A stretch of DNA of 64,000 nucleotides, from assembly GCA_963735925.1 (NCBI GenBank), contig CAVTMT010000005.1, positions 59,402-123,401 on the forward strand, given 5' to 3'. The notes beneath the pieces were generated by a model. The model worked only from the letters and a program-made list of their open reading frames with translations. It was not told the DNA's origin and made no database searches. Below are positions 1,826-53,846 of the stretch, in pieces. Positions within the stretch are counted from its first letter, which is position 1; each line of letters opens with the position of its first letter. Source of the DNA: an uncultured bacterium. Its GTDB lineage: Bacteria; Verrucomicrobiota; Verrucomicrobiia; Limisphaerales; J093. Position numbers and translations under genes: made by a program.

Positions 1826-2827
1826 TCAGGCGACCGGTGTGGGTACGGCGGGAGCCGCGGGTGGGGGGGCTTCCGCGAACGGTCCCATCGCCCGAAACTT
1901 GTCGTAACGGCGTTTCAGGAGTTCCGGCACCGACAATTCCGACAGTTCCTGCAAGTGCCGCCACAGATAAACCCTCAGCGTTTCGGAAGTAGTCTCCAGG
2001 TCGTTGTGCGCGCCGCCCACCGGCTCCGGCACAATTTCGTCCACCAGTTTGAGTTCGGCCAGTTCGCGGGCGGTGATCCGGAGTGCCTGGGCCGCCCGGG
2101 GGGCGGCGGATCGATCCTTCCAAAGAATGGCGGCACAACCTTCCGGGCTGATCACCGAGTAATAGGCGTTCTCGAGGATCAAAACGCGGTCGGCCACGCC
2201 CAGACCCAGCGCGCCGCCGGAACCGCCTTCGCCGATCACGGCCGCGACGATCGGCACCTCGAACAACGTCATCTCGCGCAGGTTCACGGCGATCGCTTCG
2301 GCGATATGCCGCTCTTCGGCGCCCACGCCGGGATACGCCCCGGCGGTGTCGATCAAGGTGATGATCGGCAGTCCGAACTTGTGGGCCAGGCGCATGAGGC
2401 GTAGCGCCTTGCGGTAGCCTTCCGGGTGGGCGGAGCCAAAATTGCGGAGAATGTTCTCTTTCGTGTCCCGCCCTTTCTGCGTGCCGATGACCATCACGCG
2501 CTCGCCTTGGAGCCGGGCGAAGCCGCCCACGATCGCACGGTCATCGGCAAAGGCCCGGTCGCCGTGCAGTTCCTCGAAATCGGCGAAGGTGGTGCGGAGG
2601 TAGTCCCTGCTGTAGGGCCGGCGGGGGTGCCGGGCGAGCTGGACGCGTTGCCAGGCGGTCAGATTCTCGAAAATCTCACGCCGGGTCTCCTCGAGCTTTC
2701 GCTCCATCAACGCGATCTCGTCCTCGAGGCTCAGCCCCAGAGAAGGCGTCTCCGCGTGGTGCCGCAGCTCCTCCAGCCGGCGCTGCAGTTCGACGATCGG
2801 CTTTTCGAATTCCAGGTGGTTTTTCAT
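1826..2827 (-). CDS. accA: Acetyl-CoA carboxylase carboxyltransferase alpha subunit
   Basis: MKNHLEFEKPI, ARHPRRP, ELHGDR, EGYRKALR, GEGGSGGAL, YSVISPEGCAAILW. Start placed at ATG 2827. Confidence 0.97.
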   Translation of the reverse strand: MKNHLEFEKPIVELQRRLEELRHHAETPSLGLSLEDEIALMERKLEETRREIFENLTAWQRVQLARHPRRPYSRDYLRTTFADFEELHGDRAFADDRAIVGGFARLQGERVMVIGTQKGRDTKENILRNFGSAHPEGYRKALRLMRLAHKFGLPIITLIDTAGAYPGVGAEERHIAEAIAVNLREMTLFEVPIVAAVIGEGGSGGALGLGVADRVLILENAYYSVISPEGCAAILWKDRSAAPRAAQALRITARELAELKLVDEIVPEPVGGAHNDLETTSETLRVYLWRHLQELSELSVPELLKRRYDKFRAMGPFAEAPPPAAPAVPTPVA

Positions 2828-3297
2828 GCAACACCGGGGCGCCGCGGCCCCGCATACCTTCGGTGAAACTAGGCCGGCCGCGGCGCCTCGGCAACGGCGA
2901 ATTCCGCCGGCGAAACGGCGGCTGGATGCCGCCGCCGCCCGGTCCTGCGCGGGCACCGCCGAGCCGGCGGACTGCATAAATAAACTGCAAGATGTACATA
3001 AACAAAATTTGCAATTTGTCCGTTGCGGGCTAGCTTCCGCAAAAGCAAAGACGGCGCGTAAGCGCATGCTCCCATGAACGGACACAACATCTGAAGAACG
3101 GCCTCCCGGCTGGCCCGGACCCGTTCCGGAGACACGGCGGGACTGGGATCCGGCGTTGCGAGCGGGCTCCGGATGTGTCCGGCGCCCGCCCACGCGCAAG
3201 CCGATCCGGCGAAGCCGAGCCCGACGAAAAACCCGGCCGCCCCGAACCGCCAGGCTGCAAACGGAGGATTCAGGTCGCGGCGTACTCCAAGACCCTC

Positions 3298-5028
3298 ATG
3301 ACCACCAGATCCCTCATCGAAAAGGCCACCGCCCTGGCGGCCAGGACGTACAAGCTCGAGAAACCTCATGTCGTGGACCGCAGCGACGCGATCCACCCAG
3401 CCACGGGAAAACCGATTCACCGTTTCCGAATCGTCAGCGCGGCCAACGCCAACGGTCCGGCCTTCATGCTGGTGCTCGACGATCGCGGCGAAGCCCTGGC
3501 GGACGCCCCTTCGCTCCTGTCCCTGTTCGAGCGAACCGTGCTTACCCCAACGGGCCTCCCGACCGGGACCGGCCTGGCAGCGGCGCCCATCACCGTTCAG
3601 CCGGACACCAACGTGCTCACGTTGAACCCGGGTCAGACGCTGGACGAAACCATCACGGTGACCGTCCCGAAGAGCGCCGGGCCCGCCAAGGTGGACGTGT
3701 ACTTTCTGGCCGATACCACCGCGTCGATGGGGAGCATTCTCAACGCCGTCCAGACCGGGGCGAACAACGTGCTGCTCGCGCTCAATGGTTTGGGAGCGGA
3801 CATGGTTTTCGGCGTGGGGAATTACAAGGACTTCCTGTCTGGCGACCCTTTCGCTTTCCAACACCAAGTGAGTCCGACGAACGTGGTGGCCACGGTCACG
3901 GCTGCGATCAACAGTTGGTCGCCGACCGGTGGCGGTGACACGCCGGAAGCCGCCCTGTTCGCGCTCGACAGTCTCGCGGTACCCCCGGGCGGGACCGTCG
4001 GTTGGCGGGCGGGCAGCAAACGCCTCATTGTCTGGTTCGGAGACGCCCCTTCCCACGATCCCATTTGCCCGGCGGCCTCGGGCGCGGCGGTGGCGGTCAC
4101 GGAAGCGAGCGCGACGGCGAAACTGGTGGCCGAGGGCATCGCGGTGCTCGCCATCTCGACGGCCACCCCCGGTCTGGACGATGATCCCACGCTGAGCGGC
4201 GGAGGTTACGCGGCGGCCTGCGGTGCGCCTGGCGGCCTGGCGGGACAGGGAACCCGCATTGCCACCCAGACCGGCGGGCAGTTCGTCACCGGCATCAATG
4301 CCGGCAATATCGTTAATACGATCATCAGCCTGGTGAAAGGCGCAGTCGGCGGCATCCAGAACCTGAAACTCGTGCCGTCGAGCACCATCGCACCGGTCGT
4401 CACCTCGATTACTCCCGCCACCGGCTACGGTCCGCTGGCCGCCGATCAGGAACACGTTCTCAAGTTCGAGGTCCGCTTCACCGGCCTGCCGTGCAAGGCG
4501 GAGGCTCAAGTCATCACCGGAACACTGGACGTGGTCGCCGACGGCTCGGTGGTGGCGGCCAAGCGGGTACAGATCACCATCCCGCCCTGTCCGGGCATCG
4601 TCTATGCAGCGAAGTTCGTCTGCGGCGTCCAACCCGCTTGCGAATGCAGTTGCGGGCCGGTGGTCCCCGGCCACTACGCCACCGAGATCAACATCCACAA
4701 CTACTCGCTCAAAGAGGTGACGATCCGTAAGCGGTTCGTGCCGCTGGTCCTCGCCGGCGCTCCCGTCGGACGCGAACCGCGGGTCGCCGCCCCGCGCGCC
4801 GAAGACAAGATCGTCCTGCCCCGGCAGACCGCCACCTTCGACGATTGCTGCCGCATCGTCGCGCTCCTGTTGGGTGGGACGCCGCCTTCGCCGATGCCCC
4901 TCCTCATCGGCTATCTTGAAATCACGGCCAGTGCGGAGGTCGCGGTGACGGCCGTGTACACCGCCAGTGGTCTCAAGGCCGGCGGCGTCTCCATCGAAGT
5001 CGTGCAGGTCACCGGTCGGCGTCTCTAA
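3298..5028 (+). CDS. vWA-domain protein with integrin-beta-like hybrid/vWA head and Cys-containing C-terminal domain
   Basis: MIDAS-like DVYFLADTTASM, GGGDTPEA and GWRAGSKRLIVWFGDAPSHD. The C-terminal YAAKFVCG...DDCCRI domain is shared with the next gene. Start ATG 3298. Confidence 0.8.
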   Translation: MTTRSLIEKATALAARTYKLEKPHVVDRSDAIHPATGKPIHRFRIVSAANANGPAFMLVLDDRGEALADAPSLLSLFERTVLTPTGLPTGTGLAAAPITVQPDTNVLTLNPGQTLDETITVTVPKSAGPAKVDVYFLADTTASMGSILNAVQTGANNVLLALNGLGADMVFGVGNYKDFLSGDPFAFQHQVSPTNVVATVTAAINSWSPTGGGDTPEAALFALDSLAVPPGGTVGWRAGSKRLIVWFGDAPSHDPICPAASGAAVAVTEASATAKLVAEGIAVLAISTATPGLDDDPTLSGGGYAAACGAPGGLAGQGTRIATQTGGQFVTGINAGNIVNTIISLVKGAVGGIQNLKLVPSSTIAPVVTSITPATGYGPLAADQEHVLKFEVRFTGLPCKAEAQVITGTLDVVADGSVVAAKRVQITIPPCPGIVYAAKFVCGVQPACECSCGPVVPGHYATEINIHNYSLKEVTIRKRFVPLVLAGAPVGREPRVAAPRAEDKIVLPRQTATFDDCCRIVALLLGGTPPSPMPLLIGYLEITASAEVAVTAVYTASGLKAGGVSIEVVQVTGRRL

Positions 5029-5057
5029 TTCACGCGCATTCAAAAAGGAATCCCGCC

Positions 5058-8000
5058 ATGTCCCATATCACCGGCACCGTCCAGGTCCTCGCTTCGCCCC
5101 AGACCATTGGGCCCGGGACCACTCTCTTCAACCCGCCCCCCGCTCCTGGGGGGACGAAACTGCTCATGCTGCACTTTCGGAACCCGGACTTCCGCCCGGG
5201 CGACCAGTTGCAGGTCAGCCTGGGCTATGACGTGGACACCTTCACCGCCGCCGATGGTCCGGAGTTCTGGACCCGCCCGATCAATGTGTACGCGTTCCCG
5301 GCCGGGGTGCCCGTCACCTACATTCCGGCCGGTCCACCCACCGGCAGCGTGCAACTGTTCGAATACGGGCGGGGAGAACGGCACCTGGCCGTGCCCGATC
5401 CCGGCCATTCCAGTTTCTCGAACTGCGACCCTTTCTATCAAGCGCCGGCCTACACGGAGCCGACCTACGATCCCTTCTGGTACTGCACGGAGCCGCCCGA
5501 CTGGGAGAACGTTGCCTGCACCACCCCGCCCACGGATGTCCGCGCCCGCGTCGCGCGCAGCGTCGGCATGATCCTGACGGTGGATACCCAGGCCGGCGTC
5601 CGGGGACTCTCCACCTGCTCCGTGACGTTGGTGGACGCGGACAAGGTCCTCACCGCCGGACACTGCCACACGCCGGAGGAGGCGCTGAGCAGCTCCGTCA
5701 TTTTCGACTATCAAACCGAATGCGACGGGAGCCGTCCGCCCGGCTACAATCCGCGGTTCTACAAGGTCAAGGCGGTGCTGGCGCACCACTATGATGGGGT
5801 GGGCGACTTCAGTCTGCTGCAGCTTGCCGAGGCCCCTGCCGGCATTCCCGCCATTCAAATGCGGCACGACCTGCCGACCGCTCCCTCCGGGGCGACGCCG
5901 GGCGAAGCCGTGTTCGGCATCCATCATCCCAATGGCGCCGTCAAGAAGCTCTCCCTGCCGCACGCGGAGGGATTTGCCCGGGTCGAGAGCAGCAGTCCGG
6001 CCGGCATCACGGTGCCCACCACCGTCGATGTCTCCGGCGGGAGTTCCGGCTCCGGCTTGTTCGACGCGGCGGGACGCATTGTCGGGGTGCTCTCCAACGG
6101 CGATCCCTGCCACGGCGGGAGGCTGAGCTATTTCCCGACGGCGACGATCCTGAGCGTGATCGCGCCCGCGCCGCCGCCGCCGCTGGTCCGCGACGTCATG
6201 CTGGTGTTCGACCGCTCCGGGAGCATGTCAATGGACGATGGTACGGGGCGCTCGAAGGTCGAAGCCGCGCGCGATGCCGTATCGCTGTTCGTGCAACTGG
6301 TGCGGGCCGGCACCGGGAATCGCGCCGGACTCGTTTCCTTCAGTACCGCGGCCAGTTCGCCCGTGGACTTCGGCATCGCCAACGTCACCGCGGGCCCGGG
6401 GGGCACGAAGACGGCACTGATCGGACCCGCGCCGTATTCCACCGGCGTGGTCGGTGGGTTGTTGCCCGCCGGCGCCACGTCGATCGGCGACGGGCTGAAG
6501 GCGGCGCAGTCGCAGTTCCCCGTCCCCGGCGGCAATCCGCGAGCCATCCTGCTGCTGACCGACGGTCTGGAGAACACCCCGCCAATGGTGGCGGGCCTCG
6601 AATCCGCGCACACGCTGGACGGCATCACGGTCCACGCGATCGGATTCGGCACGGAGACCAGTTTGGATGGTGCGTTGCTCACCGCGCTCACGGCCGCGCA
6701 TGGCGGCGTTTACATGCGCGCCGGTGGCGGCCTGGCACTCGAGAAGTTCTTCTCGCACGCCTTCGGAAACATCTTCGAAGCCGGCATCCTGCTCGATCCG
6801 GAGTTTGGGCTCCCCGCCAATCAGTCGTCGGGCAAGCCGGTCCCCTTCCGCGTCTGCGGCGAGGAGACGCTCACTGCGGTCGCCGGTTGGGATCGCACGG
6901 ATGCGGCGTTGTTCCTCCAGGCAACCACGCCGGGGGGAACGGTGATCACCGGAGCAACCCCCGGCGTGGAGACGGCGTCGGGACGAACCTGGACCTTTCT
7001 CCGAATCCCGCTCCCGATCGGTGGCGAACGCGATGGATTGTGGAGCGTCAACGTGGTCCGGCCGGGTGGCGGCGGAGAATTTCCACCGCCCGCGCCGGCG
7101 CTCCGTTATTTCCTCAATGTGATCCCGACGGGCGGCCCGCTCATGACCCGGCTACCCGATCCGAAGCGCTACTACACCGGCGACACGATCAATCCCGTCG
7201 TCCTCGTGCGGCACGACAACGGCGGCTGGCCGGACGGCATGGCGGCGTCCTTGACGATCACGCGCCCCGATGCCGGCGCGGGCAACCTCTTGAGCGCCGC
7301 CGGTCTCGGCGCTCCCGGGACGCTGGACGCCGATGGCATTCCCGCCCGCCAGGCGACCTTGCAGGCTCTGGAGCAGGCGCAGGGCAAACCCTTGATCCGC
7401 TATACGGAAACGACGATCGACCTGCGCGATGACTCCGAGAATACGCGCGGCAGCTTCGAGGCTACCGCGACGTTCGGCCGAGTGTTGCCGGACCTGCTGA
7501 CCGTCGAGGGCAACTACACCTTCCATGCCAAGGCGACGTACGGCGGGGATTGCTCCGGCATGCGAGAGCTGACGTGGTCCGTTTACGTGGAGGTCGGCAT
7601 CGATCCCGGCCGGACCACTGTCACCTCGACGCCGCTGCCCGCCACTCCGGGTGGCGTGCGCGTCACGTTCACGCCGCGCGACAAGTACGGCAATCTGCTG
7701 GGCCCCGGCCGGCTGGGCGCGTTCACGCTCGAACCGCGGCCCGGGAGCACGCCCACAGGCCCGGTGACCGACCTCGGCAACGGCTCCTATCAGGTCGATG
7801 TCGTCTCCGATCCGGCTTCCCTCGAACCACCGGGATTCGGCATCGTGCAACCCGGCCGGCCGGCGGTGGGACTCACCGTGCCGGACTTCAAGCTGTTCGT
7901 TTATAGCGTGAAGTTCGTGTGTGGCGAACAAGCCGGCGACGGCTGTGGCTGCGCACCCGTGCGGCCGGGCCGGTACGCCACGGAGATCAATATTCTCAAC

Positions 8001-8333
8001 TCCGGCGACAAAGAGGCACCGGTCCTCAAGGGCGTGGTCCCCTTGGTATTGGCGGGCGCGGTTTCCGGCCGCGAACCGGCATCCCGGGGCGTGGCGGCCT
8101 CCGAAGTCATCCGGCTGCCCGCGCACTCGGCGACGATGGACGATTGCTGTCGCATTCTGGAGCTGGCCCTCGGCGCACCGCCGGCGGGGCCGGTACCGCT
8201 GACCATTGGCATCCTGGAAGTCATCAGCACCGTTCAACTCAGCGTCACGGCCGTGTACACCGCCAGCGACGGCAGCGGCGCCGCGCCGTCGATCGACGTG
8301 CAACCGATCGGGCCACGGTTGTTGACGGTCTGA
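5058..8333 (+). CDS. Trypsin-like serine protease fused to vWA and beta-sandwich domains, with the shared C-terminal domain
   Basis: Catalytic triad in LTAGHC, GDFSLLQL and GGSSGSGLF. vWA motifs DVMLVFDRSGSM, TSIGDGL and ILLLTDGLEN. RBS AAGGA upstream. Confidence 0.85.
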   Translation: MSHITGTVQVLASPQTIGPGTTLFNPPPAPGGTKLLMLHFRNPDFRPGDQLQVSLGYDVDTFTAADGPEFWTRPINVYAFPAGVPVTYIPAGPPTGSVQLFEYGRGERHLAVPDPGHSSFSNCDPFYQAPAYTEPTYDPFWYCTEPPDWENVACTTPPTDVRARVARSVGMILTVDTQAGVRGLSTCSVTLVDADKVLTAGHCHTPEEALSSSVIFDYQTECDGSRPPGYNPRFYKVKAVLAHHYDGVGDFSLLQLAEAPAGIPAIQMRHDLPTAPSGATPGEAVFGIHHPNGAVKKLSLPHAEGFARVESSSPAGITVPTTVDVSGGSSGSGLFDAAGRIVGVLSNGDPCHGGRLSYFPTATILSVIAPAPPPPLVRDVMLVFDRSGSMSMDDGTGRSKVEAARDAVSLFVQLVRAGTGNRAGLVSFSTAASSPVDFGIANVTAGPGGTKTALIGPAPYSTGVVGGLLPAGATSIGDGLKAAQSQFPVPGGNPRAILLLTDGLENTPPMVAGLESAHTLDGITVHAIGFGTETSLDGALLTALTAAHGGVYMRAGGGLALEKFFSHAFGNIFEAGILLDPEFGLPANQSSGKPVPFRVCGEETLTAVAGWDRTDAALFLQATTPGGTVITGATPGVETASGRTWTFLRIPLPIGGERDGLWSVNVVRPGGGGEFPPPAPALRYFLNVIPTGGPLMTRLPDPKRYYTGDTINPVVLVRHDNGGWPDGMAASLTITRPDAGAGNLLSAAGLGAPGTLDADGIPARQATLQALEQAQGKPLIRYTETTIDLRDDSENTRGSFEATATFGRVLPDLLTVEGNYTFHAKATYGGDCSGMRELTWSVYVEVGIDPGRTTVTSTPLPATPGGVRVTFTPRDKYGNLLGPGRLGAFTLEPRPGSTPTGPVTDLGNGSYQVDVVSDPASLEPPGFGIVQPGRPAVGLTVPDFKLFVYSVKFVCGEQAGDGCGCAPVRPGRYATEINILNSGDKEAPVLKGVVPLVLAGAVSGREPASRGVAASEVIRLPAHSATMDDCCRILELALGAPPAGPVPLTIGILEVISTVQLSVTAVYTASDGSGAAPSIDVQPIGPRLLTV

Positions 8334-8529
8334 CCGGCCAAAGACCGGCGATCGGAAACGGCAAGGGCTGACAGCCGAATCAGTCGGGTCGGTCGCGACC
8401 AGCGTTTGGTTGACGATCGACCTACCCCTTCGCCGGGATCGGAAGGCCCGATCGCCGGCGGCGCACTGTGGTGTTTCTGTTGGCGGTTCGCCAACCGGTG
8501 GGAGGGCCGACCTCGCCGCCGGCACGCGA

Positions 8530-9402
8530 CTACCGGCCGCGCGACTTTCCAGCGAGTGCCTTCAGGACGCCTTGCATCCAATCCACGCTCCGGCGGGTGT
8601 TTTCTTCCGTGCCGCTGCATTCGAGCGAAACCACGCCCTCCCAACCGGTGCCGTGCAAGTAATCCATGCAGGCCCGGATGTGGTCGGCATTCACGCCGCC
8701 TCCGACGAAGACTTCCGAGCTGCCGATGCCGGTCTCCTCGCCGCGCGCCGCCGCGGCCAGCGCCGGACTGACGTCCTTGATGTGGCAATGGACGATGTAT
8801 TTGCGCAGCGCCCGGCAGTAGTCCAGCGGGTTGTGCCCGGCGATGAACGTGTTGCCCGTGTCGAAATTGCAGCGCAGCCACTCGGACTCGAAATACGCGA
8901 AGAGCCGCTGCATGAAATCCAGGTCGTTGGTGTACGGCCCGTGCGGTTCCACGTTGATGATGACCCGGTAGTCCTCGGCCCAGGCGAGGCACTGCCGGTA
9001 GTTGTCGCACGTGATGCGGAATACCTCCTCGCGGCTCAGGCCGGGCGTCTCGAACGCCCCGTCCACCGTATCGACCATCGGACAACCCAGTTCTGCGGCG
9101 AAGCGGATCGTCTGCGTGACGTATTGCACGCCGAAGGCGGAGCCGTTGGGCCCCATCATCGGATACGAGCCGTCGATCTGCGACACCTGAAGTCTCAACT
9201 GCTCGAGGAAACGGCGGATGGCCCGCGGGTTCGACTGCAGCGAAACGCCCGGATCGTAGCCGAGCGCCGCAATGAAGTTCTGGCCGTGGATGGCGCAAAA
9301 CTCGAGGTGCTCCAGGCCGGTGGCGGCGATCTTCTGGCAGGCGGCTTCGAAGCCCACGCTGAGCGGACGCCAGTTGTCCGCGTGAATGCCTAGGTGAATC
9401 AT
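8530..9402 (-). CDS. Sugar phosphate isomerase/epimerase family (xylose-isomerase-like TIM barrel)
   Basis: Metal-ligand pattern INVEPHG, NFDTGN, HCHIKD, VSLEC. Confidence 0.85.
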   Translation of the reverse strand: MIHLGIHADNWRPLSVGFEAACQKIAATGLEHLEFCAIHGQNFIAALGYDPGVSLQSNPRAIRRFLEQLRLQVSQIDGSYPMMGPNGSAFGVQYVTQTIRFAAELGCPMVDTVDGAFETPGLSREEVFRITCDNYRQCLAWAEDYRVIINVEPHGPYTNDLDFMQRLFAYFESEWLRCNFDTGNTFIAGHNPLDYCRALRKYIVHCHIKDVSPALAAAARGEETGIGSSEVFVGGGVNADHIRACMDYLHGTGWEGVVSLECSGTEENTRRSVDWMQGVLKALAGKSRGR

Positions 9403-9476
9403 CCGCTCCGTCTAAGCCGGTCCAGCGTCGCGGTCAAGCGTGACAACGTCGGCGACGCCGACCTAGCCTGTCCGGC

Positions 9477-10949
9477 ATGAATGCACCCCGGCACGCGGAA
9501 CGTTCACGGCTGGCTACGGTCGGGCTCCTGCTGATATCGCTCCTTGCCGGCGGCCTGTTCACGCCGTCGGCCCAGGCAGCGAACGCTGGAACCGAAACCC
9601 TCCCCGCGATCCCCGCCGAACTGCAATACCACCGCGTCGAACTGCCTTCCGAAGACAACGCCGTCATCGACTGGCTCAAAGCGGTGCCGCTCCGCCAGCC
9701 CCTGTCCGAGCCGGCGAAGACACGAGTCCGCGTCGCGTGGACGCCGGGTGCGCGGCCGTTGCCGCCGGAAGACTGGGCGCCGGTCGAGGCCTGGCTGCGG
9801 GCGAATGCCGAGGCCTTGCGCCTGATCGAAGACAGCCTGCGCAGGAAGCAGGCGCAGTGGCCCGTCCGGGGACCCGATGAGGTGCAGCCTGAACTCCTTC
9901 TTCTGCCTGAATTGGCGAAGGCGCGCCTGGCCCAGGCTGACGTGTTCGCGCGCACCGGCCAACCCGCGAAAGCCGTCGATTCGTTGTTGGGCACGCTGCG
10001 GTTGGGCCAACTGGCCGCCAGCGGTGGCGGGGCGCTGATTCATTACCTCGTGGGCTCGGCGATCCGCAGCCTGGCCCTGCAAGGCATGCAACGGCTGGCT
10101 GGCGAACGCGACGTCCCCGCGGCCGAGTTGCGCCGACTGCTGGACGGCCTGCCGTCGCTCGACGACGAACCCGACACGTACACCCAGACGATTCGAGTCG
10201 AATTCACGGATTACATCGTGAAAGCCATCGACCCGGACAAGTTTGCCCGGGACTGGACGGAGGCGTACCGAAAGAATCCGAACATCATGGCGCTCCTGGT
10301 ACCGGAGGAAATGCAACGCGCCTTCCCGATCTTCCTCACACCCGCGTTGGTCGCCGGGCATCCCCATGCATACGATCATGCCGCCGCCGTGCGCCGGGCC
10401 ATCCCGCACTTCCAACGGTTTCTCCGGAACGCCCGGGCCACGTGGAAGGCGCAGGAAAGCGATCCGGACGATCAAGCCGAGACGATGCACCGGTTCCTGG
10501 AAGCCGCGGAGCCGGTGTTGGAGCCGGTGAAAGGCGAGCCGTTGCCGTTGAGCCGGGCCGCCGCCGACCGGATTCGTGAGGCCTACAACGCTTTCGACAA
10601 TCCGCTCGGTCGCCTTCTGGAAGCCAAGCCGGACTTCATCGATTTGTCCGCCCGCCGCGTCTTCCAAGCACGCGTCGAGCACGAAGCGACGCGGGCCATC
10701 CTCGCCTTGCGCATTCACCAACTCCAACGCGGCGCGTTGCCGGTGCGACTTGAGGAACTTGTCGAACTGAAGCTGCTCCCGGCGCCGCCGCCCGATGGCT
10801 TCAGCGGCGGAAGCCTTCATTACGACCGTGCCCGTAAACGACTCTGGAGCGTCGGTGCCGACGGGGAGGACGATGGCGGCGAATCTCCGGCCGAGGGCCG
10901 CTGGCAGCAAGACGACGCGGTCTGGCTGCTGTCCTTCGAAAATCCCTGA
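9477..10949 (+). CDS. Secreted helical hypothetical protein
   Basis: Signal peptide ending AQA. C-terminal LPVRLEELV...DGFSGGSLHY...LWSVGADGEDDGG resembles a pilin/GspG-like tail. Confidence 0.65.
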   Translation: MNAPRHAERSRLATVGLLLISLLAGGLFTPSAQAANAGTETLPAIPAELQYHRVELPSEDNAVIDWLKAVPLRQPLSEPAKTRVRVAWTPGARPLPPEDWAPVEAWLRANAEALRLIEDSLRRKQAQWPVRGPDEVQPELLLLPELAKARLAQADVFARTGQPAKAVDSLLGTLRLGQLAASGGGALIHYLVGSAIRSLALQGMQRLAGERDVPAAELRRLLDGLPSLDDEPDTYTQTIRVEFTDYIVKAIDPDKFARDWTEAYRKNPNIMALLVPEEMQRAFPIFLTPALVAGHPHAYDHAAAVRRAIPHFQRFLRNARATWKAQESDPDDQAETMHRFLEAAEPVLEPVKGEPLPLSRAAADRIREAYNAFDNPLGRLLEAKPDFIDLSARRVFQARVEHEATRAILALRIHQLQRGALPVRLEELVELKLLPAPPPDGFSGGSLHYDRARKRLWSVGADGEDDGGESPAEGRWQQDDAVWLLSFENP

Positions 10950-10977: not shown

Positions 10978-11634
10978 TCAGAGATCTAGGGGCCGGTAGG
11001 CTGCGCGCAGCGTCGGTTTGCCGGCGGCGAGGAACTCCACTTCGAAGTCGGTCACGACCGCCGCCAGTTCCGGAGGTGTCTCCCAAGCTGCAAAGCCCGC
11101 GTCGGCACCGAACACTGCCTGCATCTGCGCGAAGTAATCGGCGTCGTCGGTCCGGAGATAGACCGACCCGTGCGGCGCCAACGCGGCGTGGGCGAGGCGG
11201 ACGAATTCTGCATTCACGAGCCGGCGACTGCGATGCCGCTTCTTCGGCCACGGATCGGGGAAATAGATGTGAAAAACATGAACCGACCCCTTTGGAGTGA
11301 GGTACCGCAGCCAATACGCGGCGTCGATGCGCAGTCCACGCAGGTTGGTGAGTCCGAGTCGCGGTGCCTTACGCTCGAGTTTGCGGATGCGGCCGAGGAG
11401 TCGCTCGATCCCCAGAAAATTCCGCTCCGGGTGCAACCGGGCGTAACGCATCAGAAAACCGCCATCGCCGCTGCCCAGTTCCACTTCGGTCGGCGCCGGG
11501 CGCTCGAACACGACCCCAAGGTCGAGCGGCTCGAGGATCGAATCGAGCCGCAGCAGCACGTTTGCGGGCGGCGGCTGCGCCTGTCTGGCTGCGGGCGGCG
11601 GGGTGGGCCCGGCGGGTGGCAAAGGTGAATCCAT
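10978..11634 (-). CDS. trmB: tRNA (guanine-N7)-methyltransferase
   Basis: EVELGSGDG, NFLGIE, FPDPWPKKRH, LRTD, TDFE. Confidence 0.93.
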   Translation of the reverse strand: MDSPLPPAGPTPPPAARQAQPPPANVLLRLDSILEPLDLGVVFERPAPTEVELGSGDGGFLMRYARLHPERNFLGIERLLGRIRKLERKAPRLGLTNLRGLRIDAAYWLRYLTPKGSVHVFHIYFPDPWPKKRHRSRRLVNAEFVRLAHAALAPHGSVYLRTDDADYFAQMQAVFGADAGFAAWETPPELAAVVTDFEVEFLAAGKPTLRAAYRPLDL

Positions 11635-11691
11635 GGCGAGGCCAACGGACGGCGGGTTTCGATCGAGTGCCGCGCGCGGGCCAGACGGGCG

Positions 11692-12888
11692 CTACTTGGA
11701 GAGGAACAGTGCGAGCGACGCGGTGTAGCCGTGGAGGAAATTGCGTTTGCCGACCGGGCCGATCTCGCCGTTGCAGAAAAAGCCGGTCAGGCCGAGCGGT
11801 CCCAGGTGATGTTGGGCCAGGTGCGCGTCGTGGTTCGGGCTGCCGAACAGGCCCTGCCCGCGTCCGTTGCAGACGCAGAGACAGCCGCCGAACACCTGGC
11901 GTCGCGCGACCTGCTTCCGCGCGCGTTGCAGCAATTCCACCAGGTCCTCCGTGGCGGCGGCGGCGTCGCGACACTGGAACTGCAACGATTGCCCCAATCG
12001 AGGACGCGCCCCCACGGCCAGCGCGCCGGACGTGGGGTCGCCGCCCAGCAGGTTGCGGATCAGGAAATCCCCGCGGTGGAATTCCTCCTGATATTCGTTG
12101 ACCACGAAACCCACCATGAGATTGCCCTGCGCGCGGCGCTGCTGTTCTTCCGGGAGTTTGTTGAAGGTTTCGACCAGGACTTTGTAGGCCGGCTGGTTGC
12201 CGATCTGTTGAATGACGTTGCCGTCCACCTTGGTGATGGTCCACGGCTCGCCGATGGGCGTGCAGCCTTGCGAAATGACGGTCGCCAGCTCCACGTCGCC
12301 GCCAAACGAAATCGCCACGCCGCCTTCCTCGAAGACCTCGCCATCCAGGTACAACTGCGTGCGCTGCTCCTTGGCTCGTCCACTGGCGAGACCGCCGGCG
12401 ATCGGGATGGACGGGTACGCTTCGTTCCAGCCGTCCACCCAGTTCTCGCAATCCATGTGAAACGGATCCGCAAAGGCCAGCCAGCCGTTCGATTGCTCCG
12501 GGCCCACGCCGGCTTCGTGGTGCCAGTAGCCGGGGCCGTTGGCTTCTTCGACCTGGGCCTGCGTGAAATGAGTGGTCTTCAGTTCCGCGCCGGGCAGGTG
12601 GTAGAGCCCGAGGACCAGCCCGCCCTTGCCTTCGATCTCCTGGTCGGAGGCGATCAGGCTGGCGCTCGAACAGCCCGCCAGCACGCCCACCCGGCCATGC
12701 ACCTGGACCAATTCGAGGATCGTTTCCGCGTGTTCGAACAGCGGGGGCGAAATGAAGAGCAGGCCGAGCGTGGGTTGCTTTCCGCCCAGGCGCGCGCGCA
12801 AGTCTTCGACCCAAGGCTGCAATGCGCCCTCATCGAAACCTTTATCCCAATACCCGGTCACCGCGTGTTCCGTCACCTGTACTTGCAC
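11692..12888 (-). CDS. FIST-domain signalling protein
   Basis: GGLASG, SQGCTPIG, FLIRNL, CNGRG, GFFCNGEIGP, LHGYTA. Start codon uncertain. Confidence 0.88.
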   Translation of the reverse strand: MQVQVTEHAVTGYWDKGFDEGALQPWVEDLRARLGGKQPTLGLLFISPPLFEHAETILELVQVHGRVGVLAGCSSASLIASDQEIEGKGGLVLGLYHLPGAELKTTHFTQAQVEEANGPGYWHHEAGVGPEQSNGWLAFADPFHMDCENWVDGWNEAYPSIPIAGGLASGRAKEQRTQLYLDGEVFEEGGVAISFGGDVELATVISQGCTPIGEPWTITKVDGNVIQQIGNQPAYKVLVETFNKLPEEQQRRAQGNLMVGFVVNEYQEEFHRGDFLIRNLLGGDPTSGALAVGARPRLGQSLQFQCRDAAAATEDLVELLQRARKQVARRQVFGGCLCVCNGRGQGLFGSPNHDAHLAQHHLGPLGLTGFFCNGEIGPVGKRNFLHGYTASLALFLSK

Positions 12889-53770: not shown

Positions 53771-53846
53771 GGGCCCATAGCTCAGCGGTTAGAGCAGGCG
53801 ACTCATAATCGCTTGGTCGGGGGTTCAAATCCCTCTGGGCCCACCA
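53771..53846 (+). tRNA. tRNA-Ile2 (anticodon CAT, lysidine type)
   Basis: Cloverleaf GGGCCCA...TGGGCCC-ACCA. Anticodon arm GGCGA-CTCATAA-TCGCT as in ileX-type tRNAs; T-loop TTCAAAT; encoded CCA. Confidence 0.9.

Follow-up and report, generated by a model that had tools for sequence, protein, structure and literature searches.

What is gained when two neighbouring genes, whose products have different N-terminal parts, end in one and the same domain? This question is raised by a locus on a 64,000-nucleotide stretch of DNA from an uncultured bacterium of the Verrucomicrobiota (contig CAVTMT010000005.1, positions 59,402 to 123,401), which is called the window in the following and is numbered from its first letter. 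Gene A (3298..5028, + strand) encodes an integrin-beta-like protein with a vWA domain, and gene B (5058..8333, + strand) encodes a protein of 1091 aa that consists of an N-terminal region, an S1 protease, a vWA domain, and a beta-rich middle part; the shared domain forms the C-terminal end of both. A preliminary description had proposed that this domain is either an export or sorting tag or a module for hetero-oligomerisation. We lean towards a common module for binding and/or self-association, by which the protease-vWA protein is brought together with its partner, and give this reading slightly better than an even chance.

A candidate new family of C-terminal domains

The open frames of gene A (3175-5028) and gene B (5058-8333) and the Pfam domains of their products confirm the layout first described, namely two genes on the same strand, 29 bp apart, with different N-terminal parts. 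When A and B were compared by BLASTP, the sole significant segment joined residues 465-617 of the open frame of A to residues 937-1088 of B, with 78 of 153 positions identical (51%, E 2e-37), and all other segments had E values of at least 0.4. The common stretch had been reported as about 143 residues long, gapless, and roughly 50% identical. The identity holds, whereas one gap lies near the end and the start is about 10 residues earlier, near 4567 and 7866. The A copy thus spans 4567..5025 (+, 153 aa) and belongs to the A-type group of the domain tree discussed below, and the B copy spans 7866..8330 (+, 155 aa) and provided the sequence for the structure model. All five motifs that had been noticed in both copies (VYxxKFVCG, CxCxPVxPGxYATEINI, VPLVLAGAxxGREP, ATxDDCCRI, and VTAVYTAS) were found. 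The source genome contains these two copies only.

By sequence, the domain has no Pfam match at E <= 10 and no NCBIfam match. The 67 members of alignment A2 showed no meaningful Pfam match at E <= 1, and a PDB sequence search with the domain profile returned chance-level rows only (E 0.21 and 0.5). The earlier statement that the domain cannot be assigned to a named family therefore stands for Pfam, NCBIfam, and PDB sequences, but not for the predicted fold, which is that of TM1070/ASRT (see below). A profile of both copies, searched against 1.84 billion representatives, matched 1041 clusters (50% identity) at E <= 1e-3, 320 at E <= 1e-10, and 90 at E <= 1e-30. The family statistics given here are based on the best 150 of the 1041 matches together with A and B, 152 sequences in total; 126 of them have a full-length domain match, and the 105 of those that start with Met form the set for the signal-peptide and cysteine counts. 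Across the very diverse family, approximately 20 polar or charged positions show complete or nearly complete conservation; invariant residues include K16, Y37, T39, N42, N45, K55, R69-E70-P71, and D93. We read this as a new family, absent by sequence from the Pfam and NCBIfam copies searched, of a fold that is predicted to be a known one. In the literature on ASRAH/ASRT, on vWA conflict systems, and on integrin beta-like and other bacterial vWA proteins, as far as it was covered by titles, abstracts, and selected passages, no description of the domain was found.

The tail that follows the domain measures at most 30 aa in 103 of the 105 complete representatives, and the parts in front of it vary, which bears out the expectation of a C-terminal domain on diverse cargo. 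Among these other parts are DUF6923/DUF4394 repeats, CBM96, and SdrD_B, and one member is an A-like vWA protein that carries a signal peptide; of 20 family proteins scanned, 13 had no Pfam match whatever. Small proteins made up of the domain alone occur as well. A third leaderless architecture of ~555-590 aa, represented by P0128, P0133, and L014:237-1892, has a conserved N-terminal part without Pfam match and is likewise terminated by the domain. One protein of 321 aa (P0265) contains two tandem full copies (24-163 and 167-309) and is the sole such case among the 152 sequences; together with the adjacency of domain-bearing genes described below, it gives an indirect hint of a tetramer or of a dyad/tetrad arrangement.

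Pairing of gene B with domain-bearing genes

A scan of species-representative genomes yielded 74 loci from Acidobacteriota, Pseudomonadota, Planctomycetota, Verrucomicrobiota, Cyanobacteriota, Chloroflexota, Myxococcota, Actinomycetota, and Bacteroidota; cultured carriers of the cassette include isolates of Paraburkholderia, Pseudoduganella, and Thauera. Gene B is present in 38 of them; four are cut at the 5' side, which leaves 34 assessable loci. In 30 of the 34, gene B adjoins another domain-bearing gene on the same strand. This neighbour is a full, directly adjacent A in 21 loci (with the order B-A in four Thauera-like loci), an A-like gene without vWA domain in two, a gene for the domain alone or a partner truncated at the end of its contig in four, and a second B only in three. 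The co-occurrence of A and B that had been supposed from the window is therefore that of a conserved pair. The feature always kept by the partner of B is the shared domain, and sometimes the partner is the domain alone, for example a 145-aa gene directly upstream of B in one Duganella genome (L012:4721-5152). It is because of these adjacent domain-bearing genes, including partners reduced to the domain, that we favour a binding or self-associating module.

Open reading frames of at least 100 aa were clustered for the 74 loci and the window, and no conserved neighbour was found beyond A, B, and their antisense frames. Tandem B paralogues (A-B-B or B-B) occur in some loci (L018, L019, L030, L032, L024, and L029), and L024 and L029 contain a further vWA-like fragment ~2 kb downstream.

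The domain tree comprises 91 rows; tblastn hits shorter than 125 aligned residues or interrupted by stops were excluded, such as the frameshifted A copy of L005. The B copy of the window falls into a clade of 24 B rows (support 100/98), the A rows group apart, and phyla are intermixed within the A and B groups. A-type and B-type domains are separate old lineages, and the pair has therefore been long maintained. Of 60 relatives in the same genus, family, or order, none carries the domain. Given the tree, the pairing counts, and these relatives, the cassette is an old one that has been maintained as a pair, has spread horizontally between distant phyla, and is sporadic. With regard to single loci, the A-type domain of L005 (4639-5078, from a Planctomycetaceae metagenome-assembled genome) is split into two frames at ~4827/4833, by a frameshift or an assembly error. 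Identical stand-alone domains at L064:8001-8420 and L065:534-953 come from metagenome-assembled genomes labelled Bryobacteraceae and Chthoniobacterales, and are due to either a binning error or a very recent transfer.

Predicted fold of the shared domain

The B copy was modelled with AlphaFold2 from a 67-row alignment, which gave a pLDDT of 95.5 and a pTM of 0.88; the two window copies alone gave a pLDDT of 38. The model shows a beta-sandwich that includes a single helix (residues 94-102). A Foldseek search of the PDB ranked TM1070 (1nc7) first, with an E value of 6e-4 and a probability of 1.0, followed by the sensory rhodopsin transducer of Anabaena (ASRT, 2ii7). Independently of Foldseek, VIA-align against 48,161 chains placed 1nc7_A at a Z of 10.2 (root-mean-square deviation 4.4, 112 of 116 residues aligned) and 2ii7_A at 7.7, and the next row had 6.3. 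A language-model feature search of the ESM Atlas pointed to PF07100 clusters at 0.92. A viral structure library held no match at E <= 0.001; its top row was a BACON-annotated phage protein (E 1.2e-3, TMq 0.29).

ASRT belongs to the ASRAH superfamily, whose defining features, according to De Souza, Iyer, and Aravind (2009, PMC2739507), are an eight-stranded beta-sandwich, a Trp in strand 1, a nearly invariant Asn that ends strand 2, and a ligand cleft that is lined by strand 2 and has walls formed partly by the dimer interface. The same work lists TM1070 as a tetramer and the solo ASRT forms as intracellular tetramers, for which metabolite sensing is proposed, and it also mentions secreted fused forms of ASRAH and other ASRAH families that are always dyads or tetrads. 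In the present family, N45 is invariant in alignment A3 and at least 90% conserved in A2, and it ends the second strand (E35-45) of the model. Where ASRAH has a conserved Trp, at the beginning of strand 1, the window copies read F-V-Y and I-V-Y; many members of the signal-peptide type have a W two or three residues before YSVKFVCG.

Since both VIA-align and Foldseek rank TM1070 first, and since the strand-2 Asn is as in ASRAH, the domain was filed as ASRT-like with a predicted TM1070 fold, a membership by structure for which no sequence-level relationship was detected. The likeness to ASRT/TM1070 (PF07100) extends to the beta-sandwich fold, to the Asn at the end of a highly conserved second strand, and to the existence of versions with and without signal peptides, stand-alone or fused. 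However, the domain exceeds ASRT/TM1070 in length by about 30 residues, contains a helix (94-102) and a loop (23-34) as insertions, and has motifs of its own (KFVCG, YATEINIxN, GREP, and ATMDDC) as well as an invariant Cys pair. It occurs as one C-terminal copy per protein (a tandem dyad in 1 of 152) and not in dyads or tetrads, and its context is vWA and protease instead of sugar metabolism.

Proteins A and B

The start of gene A was placed at the ATG at 3298, which gives a protein of 576 aa, because the alignments of homologues begin at this Met; the same open frame extends upstream to a GTG at 3175. The vWA domain of A (3634..4160, +) is integrin beta I-like, with PF00362 at 36.8 bits (cut-off 24.8, E 4.7e-9) and the SibA-type PF24909 (E 7.8e-8) likewise above the Pfam cut-off, and it has weak matches to solved integrin beta chains. 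Its motif resembling a metal ion-dependent adhesion site (MIDAS) reads D-T-T-A-S, with Thr at the second position, compared to DxSxS. The likeness to integrins lies in this vWA domain, whereas A is bacterial, lacks a transmembrane segment and an integrin alpha partner, and has a different C-terminal part.

Protein B begins with a region of 175 residues (5058..5582, +) that has neither a Pfam match nor a signal peptide. A feature-based match of 0.93 to a cluster with PF27052 in 15% of its members hints at a resemblance to the N-terminal region of lysyl endopeptidase, which is a weak lead only. The trypsin-like S1 peptidase domain follows at 5598..6134 (+), with PF13365 (Trypsin_2) at 45.7 bits (cut-off 27.6) and PF00089 at 30.6 bits (cut-off 20.6). 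In 98 aligned sequences, i.e., B and 97 relatives, the His/Asp/Ser triad motifs TAGHC, D.SLLQL, and GGSSGSG are at least 90% conserved and the Cys187/Cys203 pair is 100% conserved; we take the spacing of this pair to be that of the chymotrypsin His-loop disulfide C42-C58. Judged by its intact triad, B is apparently an active S1 serine protease. The vWA domain of B (6192..6725, +) has PF13519 (VWA_2) at 38.8 bits (cut-off 27) and PF00092 also above its cut-off, and it carries the canonical MIDAS motif DRSGS, again conserved to at least 90% in the 98 sequences. The beta-rich middle part (6726..7865, +, residues 557-936) is conserved in orthologues and belongs to no named family, 6801-7865 being without a Pfam match. 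A word-based search for longer proteins gave 782 matches, the best 120 of which are mostly B orthologues of ~1080 aa; the few named ones among these 120 come from Bradyrhizobium, Bryobacteraceae, Janthinobacterium, and Paraburkholderia. The sequence MSH forms the beginning of 87 of 95 full-length B orthologues.

Signal peptides, cysteines, and localisation

Signal peptides were assigned by a heuristic, not by SignalP: a 12-residue stretch before the domain had to reach a Kyte-Doolittle mean of at least 1.9 and be preceded by K or R. The best N-terminal means were 0.50 for A and 0.70 for B, so that the reported lack of a recognisable signal on both proteins agrees with the missing hydrophobic stretch, and no 19-residue window of A or B exceeds 1.71. 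Within the family, a Sec-like signal peptide precedes the domain in 49 of the 105 representatives and is missing in the other 56. Its carriers include the A-like vWA protein, the CBM96 protein, and the SdrD_B protein, and often consist of the domain alone. Routine signal peptides on homologues had been named beforehand as a finding that would refute the original proposal, and nearly half of the set has them.

The two types of members also differ in their cysteines. Cys19 and Cys94 are invariant or nearly so in the family. When five positions (19, 27, 29, 94, and 95) were compared, all 49 members with a signal peptide had Cys at 19 and 94 only, and the domain of 39 of the 49 has exactly two Cys. 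Most simply read, Cys19 and Cys94 would form a disulfide in these members. Among the 56 without signal peptide, 17 have Cys at all five positions, 13 at 19/29/94/95, and eight the basic pair only. The extra Cys at 25/27/29 and 95 are confined to this type (most of the 56, versus 0 of 49), and A and B are of the Cys-rich, leaderless kind. The extra Cys may bind a metal in the cytoplasm or provide further disulfides outside the cell, or may merely mark the separation of two clades, and owing to the last possibility the link between cysteines and signal peptides was not counted as independent evidence.

Function of the shared domain

Based on these data, A and B form a two-gene cassette of an integrin-beta-like vWA protein and an apparently active S1 protease-vWA protein, each ending in one copy of a beta-sandwich of ~145 aa, ASRT-like by prediction, that would serve as a shared binding and/or oligomerising module and not as an export signal. 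By analogy with the ASRT tetramers, the A and B copies may associate with each other, bind the same ligand, or both, and a putative common ligand would most probably be a carbohydrate or another small molecule. Either way, protease and partner would be brought to one place, in the cytoplasm or at the cell surface.

Several observations weigh against this reading. No domain-bearing gene adjoins B in four of the 34 assessable loci, and gene A occurs without gene B in 23 loci; five of the latter genomes were searched as a whole and contained A-sized frames only and no B-sized frame. The domain-only gene of the Duganella locus is precisely absent, through an indel of ~456 bp, in the close relatives L016 and L017, the flanks of which are otherwise collinear. 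As A and B each occur alone, hetero-association cannot be obligatory; this part of the original proposal is compatible with the constant presence of the domain in the partner of B and with the behaviour of ASRT proteins. A predicted complex of domain A with domain B, with an alignment for each, scored 0.27 against a mark of 0.32, a value that counts neither for nor against binding. The likeness to TM1070 is moderate as well, with Foldseek TM-scores for 1nc7 of 0.46 (query-normalised) and 0.59 (target-normalised). A comparison by hhalign with 14 ASRT sequences from genomes was not significant (probability 0.35%, E 0.17), its best and equally non-significant piece pairing NIxN of the family with the strand-2 Asn of ASRT, and hmmscan gave no link to ASRT (E <= 10 for the domain, E <= 1 for the 67 members). 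Finally, the clues to localisation conflict, because the extra Cys could fit a reducing cytoplasm, and the His-loop Cys pair of B is typical of secreted S1 proteases.

The same leaderless proteins of extracellular-type domains had given rise to the idea of an export or sorting tag, by which an unknown transporter would recognise the domain and carry A and B out of the cell. The conserved MSH start of the B orthologues, the retained His-loop Cys pair, and the nearly constant C-terminal position of the domain would suit such a tag. It fails, however, because signal peptides are common in the family, where the domain often stands behind a Sec-like one with nothing else in the protein, and because no transporter or other third gene is conserved beside the domain genes in the 74 loci; the cassette of the window is flanked by accA and a TIM-barrel gene. 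Moreover, a well-folded sandwich of 145 aa with many conserved polar residues, as predicted here, is unlike known short secretion signals, and we regard the tag as very unlikely. A search for a known C-terminal sorting or secretion domain was equally fruitless, with no Pfam or NCBIfam match and no conserved neighbour gene. A combined version, in which leaderless A and B of extracellular type hetero-oligomerise via their ASRT-like domains and leave the cell without an N-terminal signal, the CxC...CC version of the domain marking this leaderless branch, appears quite doubtful to us. Bolder still, the invariant, exposed GREP loop of one subunit might be the acidic ligand of the MIDAS site of its partner.

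If A and B instead stay inside, the cassette might be a cytoplasmic sensor-effector module for defence or regulated proteolysis, in which the ASRT-like domain senses a metabolite and controls the protease, and in which a metal site made of the extra Cys takes the place of the disulfide in exported relatives. This is a possibility of some weight, albeit not the one we expect: A and B have neither signal peptide nor membrane helix, the extra Cys are restricted to leaderless members, the patchy distribution and the mixed taxa in the tree are as for many defence genes, and combinations of vWA and trypsin-like peptidases occur in the conflict systems described by Kaur et al. (2020, PMC7159879). Conversely, PADLOC returned no match, no NTPase partner, whether MoxR, STAND, or another, is conserved, and the neighbourhood in the window consists of housekeeping genes. 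The His-loop Cys pair of B and the signal-peptide relatives of A and of the domain point outward, and the pattern of Cys may be peculiar to a single clade. A more modest role would be that of a passive structural cap, which only stabilises or ends each protein, with adjacency arising from domain shuffling and without any coupling. Genomes with A or B alone and the free-standing small domain proteins agree with a cap, but the neighbours of B, domain-only partners included, do not, and the nearly invariant polar or charged positions across so diverse a family are more than a cap would need; we therefore consider it unlikely. A shared module for binding or self-association hence remains our preferred reading.

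Comparison with known systems

With respect to its design, B can be compared to UmbA of the Streptomyces umbrella toxin particles, in which (PMC11062931) carbohydrate-binding domains with a proposed role in target specificity stand C-terminal to a trypsin-like domain. Both have a trypsin-like domain and a C-terminal binding domain, the latter putative in B, so that UmbA serves as a design analogue only and a lectin function of the present domain would be by analogy. In contrast to UmbA, B additionally contains a vWA domain and a catalytic triad that seems intact, and no UmbB- or UmbC-like or other third gene is conserved near the cassette in the 74 loci.

The vWA-MoxR ternary conflict systems of Kaur et al. 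resemble the cassette in the combination of vWA and trypsin-like peptidases, the patchy distribution, and the lack of signal peptides. However, no MoxR AAA+ ATPase, VMAP, or iSTAND lies beside A and B in the window or in the 74 loci, and membership was rejected since the defining ATPase and third component were not found.

Genomic surroundings of the cassette

Genes A and B are separated by a spacer of 29 nt (5029..5057, +) with AGGA ~8 nt upstream of the ATG of gene B and no terminator-like site between the genes. A promoter and terminator scan of 2900-8900 gave a number of sites not above that in shuffles. Upstream of gene A, accA lies on the opposite strand. Its frame (1826-3199, -) would code for 457 aa; in nine genomes of the genus, the alignment of homologues does not begin before about residue 86-120, wherefore the true start is probably near 2870. 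This would leave ~430 bp between accA and gene A. The downstream neighbour is a convergent TIM-barrel gene of the xylose-isomerase-like type (AP_endonuc_2, sugar-phosphate-isomerase-like).

Collinearity between the window and the accA flank of the closest sampled relative (G005) does not extend past 2922, and 2923-8535 has no DNA counterpart in two contigs of this genome. The TIM-barrel gene (8536-9439) matches a different contig of G005 than accA does, and the window beyond 9439 does not match that contig. The idea of a simple insertion was therefore dismissed, as no clean insertion site could be identified from this relative. Further downstream, long open frames occur on both strands (9477-10949, +; 9504-10910, -), neither with a Pfam match, followed at 10978-12888 (-) by a gene for a TrmB-like methyltransferase (PF02390) and then one for a FIST N/C-domain protein. 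An Rfam scan of the entire 64-kb window had a tRNA at 53771-53843 (+) as sole match, far from the cassette. Small shares (0.07 to 0.13) are contained in four soil or wetland DNA sequencing runs, and no RNA run is listed.

Significance

If it is true that the domain is lectin-like or self-associating, it would be usable as a targeting or assembly tag. The cassette also raises the question of whether leaderless proteins made of secreted-type parts remain intracellular, and whether the Cys cluster replaces the disulfide of their exported cousins. Overall, this analysis defines a large domain family of more than 1000 clusters at 50% identity and ties it, by predicted structure, to the small and poorly understood ASRT/ASRAH group. 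This opens a way into the hundreds of 1080-aa protease-vWA proteins, called "hypothetical", that are encoded by soil Acidobacteriota, Pseudomonadota, Planctomycetota, and others.

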